This document shows positions 2,395 through 64,000 of a stretch of DNA of 64,000 nt, piece after piece; position 1 is the stretch's first letter, and each line of letters begins with the position of its first letter. Location of the stretch: positions 93,696 to 157,695 of IMG/VR virus record IMGVR_UViG_3300031760_000005, one strand, 5' to 3'. The position numbers and the translations under genes are program-made. The notes under the pieces are model-generated. The model did no database searches and had not been told where the DNA came from. It saw only the letters and a list, made by a program, of their open reading frames with translations. Origin of the DNA: a virus. Lineage: Duplodnaviria > Caudoviricetes.

Positions 2395-3564
2395 TTAATC
2401 CATTGCACCAAATCCATCTACAGGTTTGCCATCATCACCATCTAATCCTTTATCTTGTAATTTGACTTTACCATAAGATGTTCCATTAGCGCCAATAACT
2501 TCAAATTCACATGTTGTATGCATTCCTGAAAGCCAACTACCGGTATTACGTGATAATTCTTTAATTTCAGGCATTTTATTGTCAGATTCTAAATAAGCTT
2601 TTGCAGCTAATTTATAAAGATTATCAACACCCCAAGATATACTAGAATAACTACCGAATGATTTTTCCAAAACCTTTTGAACATCATCTTTAACTTTTTC
2701 AATAGCTTCTGCTAATTTTTTAGCTTCTTCATCTTTCTTTATTTTTTCTGCAAATATCTTTTCCCATTTCTTATAGTTTTGTTCTGTTGCTTCTAAGTCA
2801 TCTTCAACTGTATCTAATATAGAAATAATATCTTTATATAAATCTGATTTTTTAAACGCTTCACGTAATTTCTTTATTTTCTTAGAATCTTTTTCATATT
2901 CAGCTTCAGCCTTTTGCCATACTTTATTAGATTTTTTACGCATGGCTTCTTCATTTCTTGAATGAGATGTTTGATCCCACATTTCTTGATATTTACTATT
3001 TACCGAATCAGTTTTTAAAATGTTAAATCTATCATTAAATTCTGGAATATTAACATTATAAGCTTGGGCAATAACACTTAATGCAAGATAAATAGAAAAA
3101 GTAAATCCTGTTGATTCATACCAGAATAATGTAACATCTTTATCCCATGAATTTCTTTTTTCTGGTTGACGTGCTTTTGTAAAACTTGCAGCTTGAATAT
3201 CATCTGTTTCTAATGCAATTCTTGCTTCTTTTGTTGCCTTTTCTACAAAATCAAAGAAATCTTTATTGCCATTTTCATCTTTTCCATAGAAATTATCAAA
3301 TGTACAATTTTGGGCATTAAGAATAAAATTATTATGACCTTGTTTAGAATTCATTGCTGTTTTAAGTTTATCTACAAGAATTTCAAAATTCTCGGTATTT
3401 ATTTTAATTACAGATTCTTCATATTCTTTATATTTATTCTTCATTTCTTCCTTTGTATTTTTAGGCATGCCCGGATAGAAAAATGGTTTACTCATTGATT
3501 GTGGTAAATCTAAATATTTACCATCTTCTTTTGATTCAAATAAAAAATCAATTAAATGTTTCAT
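2395..3564 (-). CDS. hypothetical helical protein, CTS-like N-terminus
   Basis: 389 aa ORF; MKHLIDFLFES. Confidence 0.8.
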   Translation of the reverse strand: MKHLIDFLFESKEDGKYLDLPQSMSKPFFYPGMPKNTKEEMKNKYKEYEESVIKINTENFEILVDKLKTAMNSKQGHNNFILNAQNCTFDNFYGKDENGNKDFFDFVEKATKEARIALETDDIQAASFTKARQPEKRNSWDKDVTLFWYESTGFTFSIYLALSVIAQAYNVNIPEFNDRFNILKTDSVNSKYQEMWDQTSHSRNEEAMRKKSNKVWQKAEAEYEKDSKKIKKLREAFKKSDLYKDIISILDTVEDDLEATEQNYKKWEKIFAEKIKKDEEAKKLAEAIEKVKDDVQKVLEKSFGSYSSISWGVDNLYKLAAKAYLESDNKMPEIKELSRNTGSWLSGMHTTCEFEVIGANGTSYGKVKLQDKGLDGDDGKPVDGFGAMD

Positions 3565-3570
3565 TATTTA

Positions 3571-4197
3571 TTATTCAATATTTTTATATCTTTGTTCGAC
3601 ATCACCATTTGCTCTAATACGAATACGTTCCTGAACGGATGTATGATTCATTCTTTCTCCTCTAAAAATTGTTTTAATTATTATATCAACCTTTGTACCA
3701 TTTTCTTTTATCATCCAAACTGCCCATAAATTCATGGTTCTTGGTCTAGCGCCGCAATATTCAACTTCGCCATTTTTATCTTTGTTATTATTTAACCAGC
3801 ATTGACATTCTATTGTCCATGCATCTACTTTACGTTGTTTATATTCAAATGGCTTAAACTTGCCATCATAGTTCATTTCCATTATGTCATCCCAAGACCA
3901 TCGGAACATATTAACAATTTCGTATTGACCAATTCGCTTACCACCATCACCACCTTTTTCTACTGGTCGATCTTGACGTTGCGTAGCATGATCTCCCATT
4001 CTTAATTCATCACCATCATTAGATGTCCAAACGACGCGATTTCCACTTTTAGTATGATGCCAATCATTACCTTCTAATATAAATTGTTGGAATTCATCAT
4101 CAAGTAATTCTAAAGATGATTCATCCAATTGAAAAATAATTCGACCAAGTTTATTCTCGAAATTATTTCTATTTAAAAATTCGGTAATGTTTTTCAT
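3571..4197 (-). CDS. hypothetical protein (possible RNase-fold, HA..R..R motif), variant CTS-like N-terminus
   Basis: 208 aa; MKNITEFLN...LDES; HATQRQDR and C-terminal IIIKTIFR strand. Confidence 0.7.
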   Translation of the reverse strand: MKNITEFLNRNNFENKLGRIIFQLDESSLELLDDEFQQFILEGNDWHHTKSGNRVVWTSNDGDELRMGDHATQRQDRPVEKGGDGGKRIGQYEIVNMFRWSWDDIMEMNYDGKFKPFEYKQRKVDAWTIECQCWLNNNKDKNGEVEYCGARPRTMNLWAVWMIKENGTKVDIIIKTIFRGERMNHTSVQERIRIRANGDVEQRYKNIE

Positions 4198-59848: not shown

Positions 59849-60469
59849 ATGATTGGAACGCATGATTCTTATACTTATCAAAAATCAAAAAATTTCTTTG
59901 CTAAATTTATAAGTATATTTTGGAGAACACAAAAATTAACAATACAAGAACAATATAATATTGGAGTTCGTGTATTTGATGTAAGAGTATATAGAAATAA
60001 AGATAATAAATGGGGAACAGCTCATGGATTTGTTCATTTTGACGAATCATTTGAATCACTTTCTAAAATATGCGAATATTTTGGACATAATTTTCCAGGT
60101 GCATATATAAGAATATATTTAGAAGATAAAGTAAAAAATAACGAAGAAATTAAAACATTATTCTTAAAAGAAGCCGAATTAGCTTTTAAATCTTATGAAT
60201 TTATGTTGTGGGAAATTGGTACACATTTTCCATGGATAACTTATTATCGTAATACAAATTTTAAATTTAAACTTGTTGAATATTGCTGTCATTTATTTGG
60301 TTGGAATACAGATAAAGGATTTTGGTATAATATAAAAAATATTGATTGGAGTTCTTTTTCAATACCATCATATGCTAAAAAACATAATCAAAAAATTACA
60401 CAAGAAATGATTGATGATAAATCTACTTTATATTTTTATGATTATGCAGGAATATATCCAAAAAATTAA
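59849..60469 (+). CDS. PI-PLC X-domain-like phosphodiesterase
   Basis: IGTHDSYTY, RTQ..TI.EQY..GVR.FD.RV, AHG. Confidence 0.8.
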   Translation: MIGTHDSYTYQKSKNFFAKFISIFWRTQKLTIQEQYNIGVRVFDVRVYRNKDNKWGTAHGFVHFDESFESLSKICEYFGHNFPGAYIRIYLEDKVKNNEEIKTLFLKEAELAFKSYEFMLWEIGTHFPWITYYRNTNFKFKLVEYCCHLFGWNTDKGFWYNIKNIDWSSFSIPSYAKKHNQKITQEMIDDKSTLYFYDYAGIYPKN

Positions 60470-60558
60470 ACCTCATGCATTAAATATTATATCTTAATGA
60501 AATATATATCTTTAATATTTTGATGAACGAGAGTGAAGCAGAATAATGTAAAATAAAG

Positions 60559-60588
60559 AAAGAGAGTGTTACTAGTAACACTCTCTTT
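60559..60588. terminator. bidirectional terminator (perfect 30-bp palindrome)
   Basis: AAAGAGAGTGTTACTAGTAACACTCTCTTT. Confidence 0.8.
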
Positions 60589-60595
60589 TTATTAT

Positions 60596-61483
60596 TTATT
60601 GTTTTGCTCCACAGAATGGACAAAATTTATATTTTTGATTAAGTTTTCTTCCACATTGATGACAATATCTCTTTACTAAATCATTACTATTAATTTGTTT
60701 TTGCGAAGATGGAATAATTTTGATATACTCTGTCTTAAATGGCCAATATTCAAAATCTTTGTAAATATTTTGAAATTTTTGATTGGAATGACTTCCTTCT
60801 TCAATTCGACCAGTTTCAATAGATTTTTGACGTGGTGTTGAAATACTTTTAGAAATAGTATTTGCTGATGCATAATTATAAGTAGATTGTCCTGTAATTG
60901 CACCTGAAATAGTATCTGCACAATTATTTAACGCAAGAGTTGTATCTTCCAAACCACGAGAATCAATTGTAGAAGCAGAAGCAGAATATTCAATTGAGGC
61001 ATTAGTATTATTATATAACTTTGTTTGCGCTAAGTTTTTAATATTATAATTGTAATTACTATAATTATTGTTATAATTATTGTACCAAGTTATATTTGAA
61101 TCAACTGTAAGACAAGGATTTTGTATTTTTTCTCTTTCTTTATAAAATTCGATTTTAAGATTACCATTGTCTTTAATAGCTTTCTTTACTTCTTCAGATG
61201 CTCCAACAGTATAAGTAGAAAATAAAAGATGTGATTCATTATCAAGATATCTGTCAAGCCAAACCCTTTCACCTGGACGTAACACAAGCATTTTAGAGCT
61301 ATAACTATTACCTCCATTAAAGTTAAATGTTACACCAATAGTATAATTATAAGGATTAAAAATTTGGATTTGAAATTCTGTACCATCATTCATATAGACG
61401 ATACGTTCATTAGAAGAATTTGAATACTCTTTTAATAAAGATTTGTTTACGGCAATTTTAGCCAATTTTTCAATGTTGTTCAT
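60596..61483 (-). CDS. zinc-ribbon domain protein
   Basis: C-terminal CHQCG......KFCPFCG; IETGRIEEGS.SNQ. Confidence 0.8.
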   Translation of the reverse strand: MNNIEKLAKIAVNKSLLKEYSNSSNERIVYMNDGTEFQIQIFNPYNYTIGVTFNFNGGNSYSSKMLVLRPGERVWLDRYLDNESHLLFSTYTVGASEEVKKAIKDNGNLKIEFYKEREKIQNPCLTVDSNITWYNNYNNNYSNYNYNIKNLAQTKLYNNTNASIEYSASASTIDSRGLEDTTLALNNCADTISGAITGQSTYNYASANTISKSISTPRQKSIETGRIEEGSHSNQKFQNIYKDFEYWPFKTEYIKIIPSSQKQINSNDLVKRYCHQCGRKLNQKYKFCPFCGAKQ

Positions 61484-61513
61484 AATTAATCATATAGATA
61501 TATTTTTTATATC

Positions 61514-61582
61514 TTGTTCCTAAACTTTTAAGTCTTTAAATTAACTTTCAAAAGGAGAACGTCTCCTCAGTCATAGAAACAA
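61514..61582 (-). ncRNA. candidate three-way-junction leader RNA
   Basis: P1 TTGTTTCTA(T)GACT/AGTTTAGGAACAA; P2 GAGGAGA-CGT-TCTCCTT; P3 AAGTT/GACTT. Confidence 0.45.
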
Positions 61583-61645
61583 ATGATTTATATATAAAAA
61601 TATAGTTTTTTTCTAAAATATGTTAAAAAATAAACAAAATAATAT

Positions 61646-61673
61646 AAAAATGGGGAACATTAAGTTCCCCATA
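61646..61673 (-). terminator. intrinsic terminator overlapping Pth2-like stop codon
   Basis: ATGGGGAAC-TTAAT-GTTCCCCAT followed by T tract (minus). Confidence 0.7.
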
Positions 61674-62013
61674 ATTTTAATTTCTTAATTTTTCTTTTTA
61701 ATGTATCATCATAAATATCTTTTTCATGAATTGCAATAGCTGTTAATTTATTATTCAAATCTGGTTCATAAAAATAAGTTTCTTTATCATGAGCTTCATA
61801 ATATTCAAGATAATTATTTTTAATATCTTCTAAATCAGCTTGTAAATAAATTAAATATTCATTATTCCAAATATCATGATATCGTTTGCCACTTGATAAT
61901 GACTCAACCTATCCATGCTCTATGATCCATTCGGCTATAGCATGTCCACCTTGAACTGCCCCATAAATAGGATCTAAATTTTTATCAATTAATATATATA
62001 ATTTATTTTTCAT
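61660..62013 (-). CDS. Pth2-like peptidyl-tRNA hydrolase with in-frame TAG at codon 35 (61909-61911); not in ORF track
   Basis: Hand translation MKNKLYILIDKNLDPIYGAVQGGHAIAEWIIEHG*VESLSSGKRYHDIWNNEYLIYLQ...FYEPDLNNKLTAIAI...KLWGT; family motifs on both sides of the TAG in one frame. Confidence 0.8.
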
Positions 62014-62054
62014 ATTATTCTTCATTAAAATCATCTAAATATGTATTTTCAATT

Positions 62055-62273
62055 TTAGATTTCAAAATCATCTAAATATGTAATTGACCAATAACCATGA
62101 GAAGCATAACTCATTGAATAATCATTATCATCTTCTTCATAACAAAGTAATGCTGGATATTTTTCAAAATCTTTTACTTCAAGATAATGACTTACTTTAT
62201 ATCTATTCCAACTATCAATAAAGCTTTGAGCTTCCTTTTCATTTCTAATTAATGTTTTGTTACAAAGTTCCAT
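62055..62273 (-). CDS. hypothetical protein
   Basis: 72 aa in operon. Confidence 0.6.
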   Translation of the reverse strand: MELCNKTLIRNEKEAQSFIDSWNRYKVSHYLEVKDFEKYPALLCYEEDDNDYSMSYASHGYWSITYLDDFEI

Positions 62274-62275
62274 AA

Positions 62276-63097
62276 TTATTTATTATATAATTTTGTTAAT
62301 ACTCCTTTTATTAATCCCCATACTGTAGTTTTATTTTGTGGTTTTGCAAATCCTTTAGTATGTTTTACTTGCGATTTAATTTGAGTTCTATCATACAAAT
62401 AATCAACTGTTGTTTTCCTTGCATATAATTCATTAATATCAATATCATTTTTATCTTCTTCTGAAATATAATCAAGAAGTTTAATGAAATGCCAATAACT
62501 TAAACAAGTTCTTTTAAAATCATTTTCATTACCACATTGACAATCTTTATTAAATTCTACAAAAACTTTATCAAGGCTTTCATCTTTATAATATTTTCTA
62601 AGATTTATTTCACAATTACAATATCCTTTACTACTAAATAAATCATTTAAAGCTTTTGAATGTTCTGAACATTGTCTAAAGAATGTTTTATATCTATTAT
62701 CTTCCGAATCATATCTTATAGACTTATTTATCCATTCATACCAGTAATAATCGTCAGGTTCATTAGTATATTTATTATTTTCCCAATCATATTTATAATT
62801 ATGACTTAAATACAATTTAAAATCATCTTTTGAAGTATTAATAATGTCTTTATAAATATCATAAGGTATAGAATGATATATACAAGGGCAATTACTATTT
62901 AAATATTTTTTGCATTTTTGAATTTCTTTATCAAGATATTCATTAACTTCCTGTTCATTAAAATCATGTTTAATACAATAATATACTAAATTCATACCAT
63001 GATAATAAAAACTTGTATTATCATTATTTGTACCTTTAATTGCTTTCTTCAAAAATATATATGAAGGTTTAGCTGTTTTATAATTCAATTTTTCCAT
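62276..63097 (-). CDS. hypothetical protein
   Basis: 273 aa. Confidence 0.7.
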   Translation of the reverse strand: MEKLNYKTAKPSYIFLKKAIKGTNNDNTSFYYHGMNLVYYCIKHDFNEQEVNEYLDKEIQKCKKYLNSNCPCIYHSIPYDIYKDIINTSKDDFKLYLSHNYKYDWENNKYTNEPDDYYWYEWINKSIRYDSEDNRYKTFFRQCSEHSKALNDLFSSKGYCNCEINLRKYYKDESLDKVFVEFNKDCQCGNENDFKRTCLSYWHFIKLLDYISEEDKNDIDINELYARKTTVDYLYDRTQIKSQVKHTKGFAKPQNKTTVWGLIKGVLTKLYNK

Positions 63098-63115
63098 AAT
63101 TTATTACTTATATAT

Positions 63116-63568
63116 TTATTCCCAAAAAATAATTTTATCAATATATTCACAATAATCTCCATTATCAGAAAGTTCATTTAAAATTTCGTCATCAATATAA
63201 TCTTCATATCCGGCGGCAAATAAATGTTCTTTTACTCTATTAATAAACAACACATCATCTTTTTGTTCATCAAATCGTGAATTACGATATGGGTAAAATG
63301 GAGATCCGTGAAAGTAATATTTCCATGATAAAATACCGCGATTAATCCAATATTTCTTACCATGAAGAATCCATCTATAATAAGTAATAAGATTGTGGAT
63401 TTTGACCTTTCTTTCATTAATTTCATCTACAATACTTTGTAAACTTTTGCCTTCAGGTCTATTTGCAAGTTTACGAGTTTTCTTTTGCTCTCTTTGTTCA
63501 TTTGCGAGTCGAGCGATCTCTACTTTCATTGCACTAAGTAATGCATTTCTTAATTCATTGTTTTCCAT
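63116..63568 (-). CDS. hypothetical protein (basic N-terminal helix)
   Basis: K.EI..LA.EQ...K..RK; first gene after leader. Confidence 0.7.
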   Translation of the reverse strand: MENNELRNALLSAMKVEIARLANEQREQKKTRKLANRPEGKSLQSIVDEINERKVKIHNLITYYRWILHGKKYWINRGILSWKYYFHGSPFYPYRNSRFDEQKDDVLFINRVKEHLFAAGYEDYIDDEILNELSDNGDYCEYIDKIIFWE

Positions 63569-63681
63569 ATTTGTAAATATTAATAATTTTATTTATAATG
63601 ATCTGGTGCTCTATAAATCCAATTCTATTCAACAAAATGAACACCATAAACAGTTGAACAGATTTAATAAATAAAATCTAT

Positions 63682-63723
63682 TTACGGAAAACCTCTAACA
63701 GCAATCTACCAATGTTGTCTCAT
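63682..63723 (-). promoter_or_regulatory. leader peptide uORF MRQHW*IAVRGFP with internal TAG
   Basis: ATG AGA CAA CAT TGG TAG ATT GCT GTT AGA GGT TTT CCG TAA after AT-rich aaattATG context like real genes here. Confidence 0.5.
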
Positions 63724-63741
63724 AATTTTACTTAATTTAAT

Positions 63742-63870
63742 TTATTTAACTTTATGTGATTCTCTAAATTCTTTCCATTCACTTTCAGAAAGCTCTGGTT
63801 GATTTTCTATAGCTTTTCGCTCTTCTTCAAAAATAGATAACCACAATTCTCTTGTTTTATTAATATCCAT
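63742..63870 (-). CDS. 42-aa hypothetical protein (start reassigned, downstream of tRNA)
   Basis: MDINKTRELWLSIFEEERKAIENQPELSESEWKEFRESHKVK. Confidence 0.5.
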   Translation of the reverse strand: MDINKTRELWLSIFEEERKAIENQPELSESEWKEFRESHKVK

Positions 63871-63872
63871 TG

Positions 63873-63943
63873 TGATCCCAGTAGGACTCGAACCCACCTC
63901 TGTTGTTTTAGAAGCAACGGCACAACCTCTGTACCATGGGACC
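63873..63943 (-). tRNA. amber suppressor tRNA, anticodon CTA
   Basis: GGTCCCA/TGGGATC acceptor, GTAC-AGAGGTT-GTGC D arm, GTTGC-TTCTAAA-ACAAC anticodon arm (one C:A mismatch), GTGGG-TTCGAGT-CCTAC T arm; CCA not encoded. Confidence 0.8.
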
Positions 63944-63950
63944 AAATTTG

Positions 63951-64000
63951 ATGACGAGGAGGGAATTGAACCCACAGCTGGACTAATCCGGTAGTCATCC
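63951..64000 (-). tRNA. 3' part of a long-variable-arm tRNA (class II), truncated by window edge
   Basis: GGA-TTAG-TCC variable hairpin then GTGGG-TTCAATT-CCCTC T arm; anticodon not fully in window. Confidence 0.55.

Follow-up and report, generated by a model that had tools for sequence, protein, structure and literature searches.

A candidate amber-gated leader switch upstream of a small operon in a large rumen phage

Organization of the locus

The region analyzed (the window) is a stretch of 64,000 nucleotides that forms the end of a 157.7-kb linear IMG/VR phage record (IMGVR_UViG_3300031760_000005), which has 25.9% GC and is estimated by CheckV to be 55% complete. The DNA and protein relatives that were found lie on rumen-type viral contigs of 34-435 kb and, more distantly, in the Prevotella Lak phages. 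On the minus strand, a tRNA with a CUA anticodon, the last of an array that is cut off by the contig end, is followed by a window-specific 42-codon ORF, a 173-nt intergenic leader, three genes of unknown function, a 124-codon gene with an in-frame TAG, and a terminator-like hairpin. All features below are on the minus strand.

63872-63943: amber suppressor tRNA, anticodon CUA (ARAGORN; Rfam tRNA model, 45.6 bits)
63682-63723: leader uORF of 13 codons plus stop, M-R-Q-H-W-UAG-I-A-V-R-G-F-P-UAA (ATG 63723-63721, TAA 63684-63682)
63706-63708: in-frame UAG of the uORF, the proposed gate
63694-63705: 12-nt spacer (AUU plus 9 variable nt) between the UAG and the masking helix
63683-63692: 5′ strand of predicted helix P1, GUUUUCCGUA (codons G-F-P-stop), the anti-start sequence
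63560-63569: 3′ strand of P1, UAUGGAAAAC, comprising the start codon (63568-63566) and next two codons of the first operon gene
63657-63682: predicted hairpin P0, AAUAGAUUU / AAAUCUGUU
63624-63662: pseudoknot stem S1, UCUGUUCAAC (63662-63653) with GUUGAAUAGA (63633-63624)
63604-63646: pseudoknot stem S2, UGGUGUUC (63646-63639) with GAGCACCA (63611-63604), crossing S1
63116-63568: first operon gene, gp150 ("geneX" family), function unknown
62055-63097: two further operon genes, gp273 (62276-63097) and gp72 (62055-62273), function unknown, presence variable among relatives
61660-62034: last operon gene, predicted PTH2-like fold, one in-frame TAG at 61909-61911
61650-61672: terminator-like hairpin overlapping the 3′ end and stop codon of the last gene (9-bp stem with 5 GC pairs, followed by a T run)

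A first-pass annotation had described this leader as an amber-sensing uORF with a TAG before an arrest-like RGFP motif, followed by a pseudoknot. Base-by-base inspection of the minus strand showed every coordinate that it gave to be exact, including the short hairpin TAGATTT (63680-63674) with AAATCTG (63665-63659), the 10-bp stem with one G-U pair formed by TCTGTTCAAC (63662-63653) and GTTGAATAGA (63633-63624), the 8-bp pairing with one G-U of TGGTGTTC (63646-63639) with GAGCACCA (63611-63604), which ends 35 nt before the ATG at 63568, and a second in-frame TAG (63627-63625) followed by NWIYRAP. The observation was confirmed.

Conservation of the uORF and its in-frame UAG

The annotation had specified beforehand that its reading would fail if the uORF and TAG were not conserved upstream of homologs of the first operon gene. 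Upstream of gp150 homologs the leader was the best-conserved stretch, and two pattern scans were then made, one requiring the TAG and the other, on metagenomes, using TTTTCCGTAAATAGAT-N(4-16)-ATCTGT, which contains neither the ATG nor the TAG of the uORF. Together these gave 26 distinct leaders, and 26 of the loci were retrieved with the pattern lacking the ATG and TAG; two hits of the 18-nt pattern scan (L012 and L013; related loci carry L numbers) were chance matches. All 26 leaders kept ATG-x-CAR-x-TGG-TAG-ATT-(9 nt)-GGT-TTT-CCG-TAA, CAR being Gln, and the reading passed this test. The whole leader was far better conserved than its flanks in the 26 sequences.

The spacer was always 12 nt, with 12 sequence variants and no indel. 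In the uORF frame 0 of 12 variants carried a stop, against 3 of 12 and 12 of 12 in the other two frames. The arginine of RGFP was present in only 5 of the 12 variants of this clade and was replaced by L, D, S or N in the other 7. In contrast, GFP-stop was invariant at the nucleotide level, so base pairing explains it at least as well as an arrest peptide does. The second TAG with NWIYRAP was a window-specific C-to-T change inside the pseudoknot stem, was shared only by L035, and was preceded by no start codon; it was rejected as incidental.

The possibility that the region is an untranslated structured element, such as a processing or stability signal at the end of the tRNA array or a promoter/operator, with an incidental ATG and TAG, was considered. 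The leader lies directly after a tRNA array, TGTTCA/TGAACA occurs four times in the manner of operator half-sites, and TAGATTTG resembles the Bacteroidota -7 promoter box in some relatives. However, the promoter-like motifs (Bacteroidota-type -33/-7 boxes, examined by eye) are not conserved in the window, a sigma-70 promoter and terminator scan found nothing specific in the leader, and a search of positions 60000-64000 against all Rfam families (E ≤ 1) matched only the tRNA. The block GGTTTTCCGTAAATAGATTT is unique in the window (0 expected) and occurs once per related contig; being single-copy, the element is not a general promoter or a repeat. Covariation followed RNA pairing (segments 1-3 and 2-4) rather than palindromic operator symmetry, and the reading-frame and codon-family evidence is not explained by this view, which was considered very unlikely.

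The 3′ end of the uORF is predicted to pair with the downstream start codon

The likely output of the leader was missed in the first-pass annotation. The invariant GUUUUCCGUA is complementary to UAUGGAAAAC over 10 bp with one G-U pair. This helix (P1) was present in the MFE and centroid folds, stacked on hairpin P0, and had a base-pair probability of 0.73-1.00 in 24 of 25 leaders. The duplex energy was -12.3 kcal/mol against -6.9 +/- 2.2 for dinucleotide shuffles (p about 0.02), a modest significance for a single sequence, and 96-98% of alignment cells were paired. P1 never varies within this clade and so has no covariation of its own. The first downstream gene belongs to at least 5 unrelated proteins among the loci, yet the start UAUGGAAAA was kept in front of them and the gene nearly always begins ATGGAAAA(C), which fits the start region being part of the leader. 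Variants of the 3′ strand were a terminal C to U (L026, L043, L044, L049), C to G (L028), and one A fewer in L064. In L042, CCG is changed to CCA, a synonymous change that turns the G-U pair into A-U.

The first paired nucleotide lies about 16 nt after the first base of the UAG, which is about the leading edge of a ribosome with UAG in its A site. The whole 173-nt leader did not fold better than shuffles (z = -0.28), but the 91-nt core did (z = -2.4). Hairpin P0 had a probability of 0.79 in the window but was variable among relatives, and its short stem TAGATTT/AAATCTG showed only one-sided changes, so that P0 is consistent with the data but not proven. P0 competes with S1 for AUCUGUU. In several relatives the nested-fold model preferred other interior structures. 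These predictions place alternative pairings in the leader, one of which, P1, sequesters the start of the regulated gene, as in leader-peptide attenuators of the ermC type.

A conserved pseudoknot within the leader

The two crossing helices named in the first-pass annotation were supported by covariation. In an alignment of 25 sequences, 95.4% of cells were paired, against 32-48% when partners were slid, and the covariation score of 0.090 was reached by 0 of 500 shuffles. Stem S2 had three pairs with changes on both sides (UA12/GC7/AU4, GC19/AU6 and UA23/CG1). Stem S1 was 97.3% paired and nearly invariant within the clade, with one compensatory AU to CG change. In divergent leaders S1 was replaced at the same topological place by unrelated sequence, namely CUUAUGUAA/UUACAUAAG, its strand-flipped form, or AGCC/GGCU, always crossing S2, with loop lengths of 6-9, 3-6 and 7-9 nt. 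An unbiased search for crossing stems recovered the same pseudoknot in six of ten leaders tested, which fall into three unrelated sequence classes of the first helix. Nested alternative pairings (segments 1-4 and 2-3) were limited to the shared 7-nt core with mismatched flanking positions and were rejected in favor of 1-3 and 2-4. The features of an H-type pseudoknot, two helices of crossing topology each supported by covariation, are thus present, although sequence comparison did not distinguish whether S1 and S2 coexist or alternate. A scan of viral contigs for the pseudoknot alone found only loci already recovered.

The operon and the use of TAG

The TAG-containing last gene was the one constant gene downstream of the leader, and 15 of 20 distinct homologs kept a TAG at the same site, mostly as TGG-TAG-AT(A/T), the same context as in the uORF. 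Five homologs have lost the internal TAG while keeping the leader. The gene had no Pfam match at E ≤ 1, no six-frame match to PF01981 (PTH2) at E ≤ 10, and no PDB sequence match with a 12-sequence profile, but matched PHROG 3668 "hydrolase" (E = 6e-9). An AlphaFold2 model (pLDDT 80) was searched with Foldseek, and the top 13 rows were all PTH2-family or PTH2-like chains (among them 2zv3, 3erj, 1rlk, 1wn2, 1xty and 1q7s), with probability 0.77-1.0 and TM about 0.5. Because the TM score is moderate, the product is called PTH2-like in predicted fold only; hydrolysis of peptidyl-tRNA was not assayed.

Homologs of gp150 follow the leader in most loci, and it bears a weak family resemblance to the gene that follows the leader in distant loci. 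Pfam, PHROG and PDB sequence searches with gp150, gp273, gp72 and the 42-codon ORF found nothing, an atlas search with gp150 alone found nothing usable, and the gp150 model was helical with no PDB match by Foldseek. No protein-protein contact is claimed, and complexes were not modeled.

TAG is almost unused in the 157.7-kb record, in which 164 TAA and 24 TGA stops, about three apparent TAG stops, and one convincing internal TAG besides the leader were counted. The record therefore does not show the many genes with in-frame TAG, and the absence of TAG as a stop, of a code-15 (TAG=Gln) recoded phage, with the reservation that it is only 55% complete. No match to PF00472 (release factor) was found in the record. 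ARAGORN called the same tRNA(CUA) just upstream of the leader in the related loci L001, L002, L003, L006, L043-45, L048, L050, L052, L053 and L055, and tRNA(CUA) was adjacent in nearly all loci. The suppressor tRNA resembles neither the neighboring tRNA-Trp nor tRNA-Gln, and the amino acid inserted at UAG was not identified.

Divergent leaders of the same design

A profile search with the last operon gene gave 44 loci with two layouts. In layout A the order is tRNA(CUA), leader, genes and the Pth2-like gene; in layout B it is leader, geneX, Pth2-like gene, then tRNA(CUA) 30-100 nt behind. Divergent A-type leaders (L043, L044, L049, L050, L064) kept the uORF and P1, while their closing-stem extension and interior were rebuilt from different sequence; the closing-stem extension covaried in L043, L044, L049 and L050. 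The B-type leaders could not be aligned at the DNA level, but almost every one had a short ORF 55-115 nt upstream of geneX, each with one or two in-frame TAGs and a Pro-rich end. Examples are MTH-TAG-VLNPP-stop, MKH-TAG-VNPVPP-stop, MKHL-TAG-INFGRASP-stop, MKKNYIMQFS-TAG-ICLRGPP-stop, MTPFL-TAG-IDTFT-TAG-VQNRPP-stop and MKSFW-TAG-IINQFW-TAG-LKIRSPGV-stop. In the IRSP/IRG(F)P motif Ser is coded by AGC, AGU, UCU and UCC, and Arg by AGA and CGU, which points to selection on the peptide.

Pairing between the post-TAG part of the uORF and the downstream start region was tested against shuffles in 27 leaders and was found in 24, with a median p of 0.017 over all 27; in the three that failed, the assigned uORF boundaries were off. 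In all 24 leaders of the detailed duplex analysis, some of them unalignable, the downstream AUG lay inside the best duplex, the 5′ strand spanned the last uORF codons and stop, and the median distance from TAG to helix was 15-16 nt. In L078, CCUCCU of the PP codons pairs with an SD-like AAGGAG.

The core R-[AG]-[PG]-P of the RAPP-like arrest peptides is not carried by the window, which has R-G-F-P-stop, and GFP-stop is not a documented arrest motif. Distant relatives do carry RGPP (L078), RASP (L069, L074), NRPP (L082) and IRSP/IRGP (L058, L061, L062, L065); RGPP, RASP, IRSP and PP-stop ends appear only in distant relatives. C-terminal RAPP and RGPP motifs are proven arrest sequences (PMC12992588, PMC10951233, PMC7897499), but arrest on these leaders was not measured. 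The masking structure does overlap the proposed arrest site in 24 of 24 leaders.

An alternative is that the uORF is translated but UAG is simply its stop, giving the 5-residue peptide MRQHW, and that the sequence behind it is conserved only as RNA, as the masking helix plus pseudoknot, responding to something else, such as a protein, a tRNA or temperature. In favor of this, GGT-TTT-CCG-TAA is invariant in the window's clade even at third codon positions, as expected for an RNA constraint, and the conserved pseudoknot suggests a ligand- or protein-binding domain. Against it, the post-TAG frame never contains a stop and never shifts, distant leaders keep a TAG followed by a peptide motif coded by different codon families, some have two in-frame TAGs or are fused in frame to the next gene (L057, L084), and a UAG-reading tRNA lies nearby. 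This alternative was judged unlikely.

A proposed model of amber-gated translation

The favored explanation, held with moderate confidence, is that the leader is a translational switch reporting whether UAG is being read through. In the OFF state, the last codons and stop of the uORF would pair with UAUGGAAAAC, P0 would stack on this helix, and the pseudoknot domain would hold its two strands together, masking the initiation site of gp150. A ribosome released at UAG by host RF1 would stop about 16 nt before the helix and leave it closed. In the ON state, when the phage tRNA(CUA) encoded just upstream wins against RF1, the ribosome would continue for 7 more sense codons to the UAA stop 8 codons after the UAG, unwind P1 and P0, and end on Pro-stop (PP-stop, RGPP, RASP or IRSP in relatives), where termination or elongation is slow, so that the helix stays open long enough for initiation at the freed AUG. 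With the 5′ arm of P0 covered by the ribosome, S1 could form and may delay re-closure. The last gene, carrying its own in-frame UAG, would be gated twice. The switch would read the balance between suppressor tRNA and RF1, two inputs that were not separated here.

The analysis itself demonstrated the conservation and spacing of the parts, the covariation of the helices and the predicted pairing, whereas translation of the uORF, decoding of its UAG by the tRNA, a pause at its end, and activation rather than repression by read-through are deductions. Conservation of the ATG, frame and codon families argues for translation, but in the absence of direct evidence the question is left undecided; no expression, ribosome-profiling or reporter data were examined, and the promoter and 5′ end of the mRNA were not mapped. 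The model does not explain the role of the pseudoknot, which is not scored by ViennaRNA.

The first-pass interpretation was that ribosomes reach the stall motif only when UAG is suppressed, refolding the leader and controlling the operon that ends in the TAG-containing Pth2-like gene. This interpretation was supported, by comparative and computational evidence only: the uORF and its TAG are conserved, also in distant phages with unalignable leaders, the link to the operon holds, and the pseudoknot covaries. It required correction in that the pairing of the last uORF codons with the next start codon had been missed, R is not conserved in this clade, and the second TAG is incidental.

The same parts could have an opposite or different output, with read-through and stalling lowering expression through stall-induced mRNA cleavage or tmRNA/SmpB action, or with the leader mainly controlling transcription through Rho-type polarity. 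Pro-stop ends provoke tmRNA tagging in E. coli, an smpB gene was noted in this phage by the first-pass annotation but was not tested here, and in layout B the tRNA(CUA) lies downstream of the operon, so translation-dependent polarity could feed back on the tRNA. However, the one feature shared by all 24 leaders is a helix that masks the downstream AUG and must be opened by a ribosome passing the UAG, which predicts activation, and no intrinsic terminator follows the leader. This was also considered unlikely.

A more speculative and improbable reading, not excluded by the data, is that the leader is a monitoring substrate for the state of the genetic code in a closed feedback loop. Ribosomes that read through UAG would stall at the Pro-stop end and switch the operon on, and the PTH2-like product, itself made only by UAG read-through, would then release the stalled peptidyl-tRNA, or trim the suppressor's charge, and reset the switch, with the pseudoknot as docking site for that feedback. 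This would make a self-contained, homeostatic sensor of the suppressor tRNA versus RF1 balance and could be the first step by which phages that still use the standard code acquire a recoded stop codon.

Suppressor tRNAs are common in large phages, including many that otherwise use the standard code, and their purpose is an open question. In this model, the leader gives the tRNA(CUA) a concrete, conserved client, a compact device of about 165 nt that turns UAG read-through into translation of an operon. It makes the proposed use of recoding as an infection timer directly testable, and shows a stage where TAG is nearly vacant and only a regulatory circuit uses it. If confirmed, it would add stop-codon read-through as a new input to the class of arrest or leader-peptide switches and offer a natural, portable part for sensing amber suppression in genetic-code engineering.

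Comparison with known systems

Stop-codon recoding is described in Lak, crAss-like and other gut phages with "code-change modules" (Borges et al., bioRxiv 10.1101/2021.08.26.457843; PMC9523058), which share with this locus a phage-encoded tRNA(CUA), in-frame TAG in phage genes and the proposed use of recoding as a timer. Those papers describe many recoded late genes and not a leader peptide with a masking helix (text search of the recoding survey), and literature searches found no description of a natural amber-gated leader. The PTH2-like gene has a homolog in Lak-A1 and Lak-B1, but true Lak-A1 and Lak-B1 phages have no such leader and no TAG in the homolog. New in this window are the GFP-stop version, in which the masking helix reaches the AUG itself, the conserved pseudoknot, the tRNA placed upstream of the leader, and a genome in which TAG is otherwise nearly vacant.

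The proposed mechanism resembles that of arrest-peptide leaders that unmask a downstream initiation site, SecM-secA (RAGP), MifM-yidC2, VemP-secDF2, and the RAPP/RGPP peptides ApdA, ApdP and ApcA (PMC7897499, PMC10951233, PMC12992588), in which a ribosome held near the Pro-rich C-terminal end of a short upstream ORF opens an mRNA helix that hides the next gene's start. In the present model the input is not secretion force but decoding of an in-frame UAG upstream of the stall site, the peptides are far shorter (8-27 residues), and the operon concerns tRNA and translation rather than protein localization. In drug-inducible translational attenuation (ErmCL-ermC, cat and cmlA leaders), the position of the ribosome on a leader ORF likewise decides between alternative mRNA pairings, one of which masks the initiation site of the regulated gene. 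There the trigger is an antibiotic bound in the exit tunnel; here it would be stop-codon read-through, and the leader's own 3′ end is the masking strand.

In prfB (RF2) autoregulation, an in-frame UGA serves as a sensor of termination efficiency at that codon, but the output is a +1 frameshift within one gene and RF2 is sensed, whereas here read-through of UAG (RF1) by a tRNA would open the start of a separate gene. In the long-range Min Jou interaction of RNA phage MS2/f2, the replicase start is masked by pairing with an upstream coat-gene segment that a ribosome must pass, and early coat amber mutations are polar unless a suppressor tRNA is present. The amber codons of MS2 are laboratory mutations, whereas here the amber codon is a conserved, built-in part and the suppressor is encoded beside it.

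Codon context of the amber codons and TAG usage

The leader uORF and most of the Pth2-like genes in related loci were found to share the context TGG-TAG-AT(T/A), that is Trp-amber-Ile, which in the window lies at 63706-63711 and may be a preferred read-through context. The TAG of the window's own Pth2-like gene (61909-61911), however, sits in GGA-TAG-GTT instead. The first-pass annotation had also listed a second in-frame TAG followed by NWIYRAP. This codon is indeed present in the window (63625-63627), but it arises from a C-to-T change in the 3′ arm of pseudoknot stem S1 that creates a G-U pair, and it was shared only by the related locus L035; it is therefore not a conserved feature.

Across the whole record (157,695 bases, of which the window is 93696-157695), TAG was nearly vacant, with 164 TAA and 24 TGA stops, about three genes that seem to end in TAG, and one convincing internal TAG. 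No release-factor domain (PF00472) was found in the record, which is 55% complete.

Sequences flanking and inserted in the leader

Two further features were noted on the tRNA side of the leader in the window:

63742-63870 (-), a 42-codon ORF that starts 2 nt after the tRNA and is not present in relatives
63944-64000 (-), the last 57 bases of the window, which look like part of another tRNA cut off by the contig end

In two related loci, ARAGORN reported an odd tRNA-like gene (designated 'tRNA-???', with the two-base anticodon 'ag'). In L003 (2473-2542) it lies between tRNA-Trp and tRNA(CUA), and in L008 (1000-1069) it lies where the suppressor is expected.

A hairpin-forming insertion of 27-31 nt (AAATTTTGAAAATTTYATATTTTCAAT) was found at different places inside the leader in two phages and elsewhere in a third (loci L035:10939-10965, L021:365-391 and L024:6653-6679). 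This insertion, which is absent from the window, looks like a tiny mobile element.

Variation in distant leaders and linkage of the Pth2-like gene to tRNA(CUA)

At the uORF ends of the distant loci L068, L071, L072 and L078 (L078:3108-3220), the Pro-Pro codons are nearly always CCU-CCN, giving CCUCCUUAA, a sequence identical to the anti-Shine-Dalgarno tail of 16S rRNA. Only in L078 does it pair with an SD-like AAGGAG before the next gene. In two other distant loci (L057:3044-3514 and L084:3062-3529), the TAG-containing leader, with two W-TAG pairs, is fused in frame to geneX, the gene that otherwise follows the leader. This suggests that the free-standing uORF and an N-terminal 'amber gate' are interconvertible.

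The gene with the predicted PTH2-like fold and a tRNA(CUA) are tightly linked in more than 20 large-phage loci (L056-L084, at about 3500-3940 in each locus), the tRNA starting 30-100 nt after the stop codon of the gene. By comparison, the Lak phages Lak-A1 and Lak-B1 (L040 and L041) have a TAG-free homolog of this gene with a tRNA(UUA) about 700 nt upstream.
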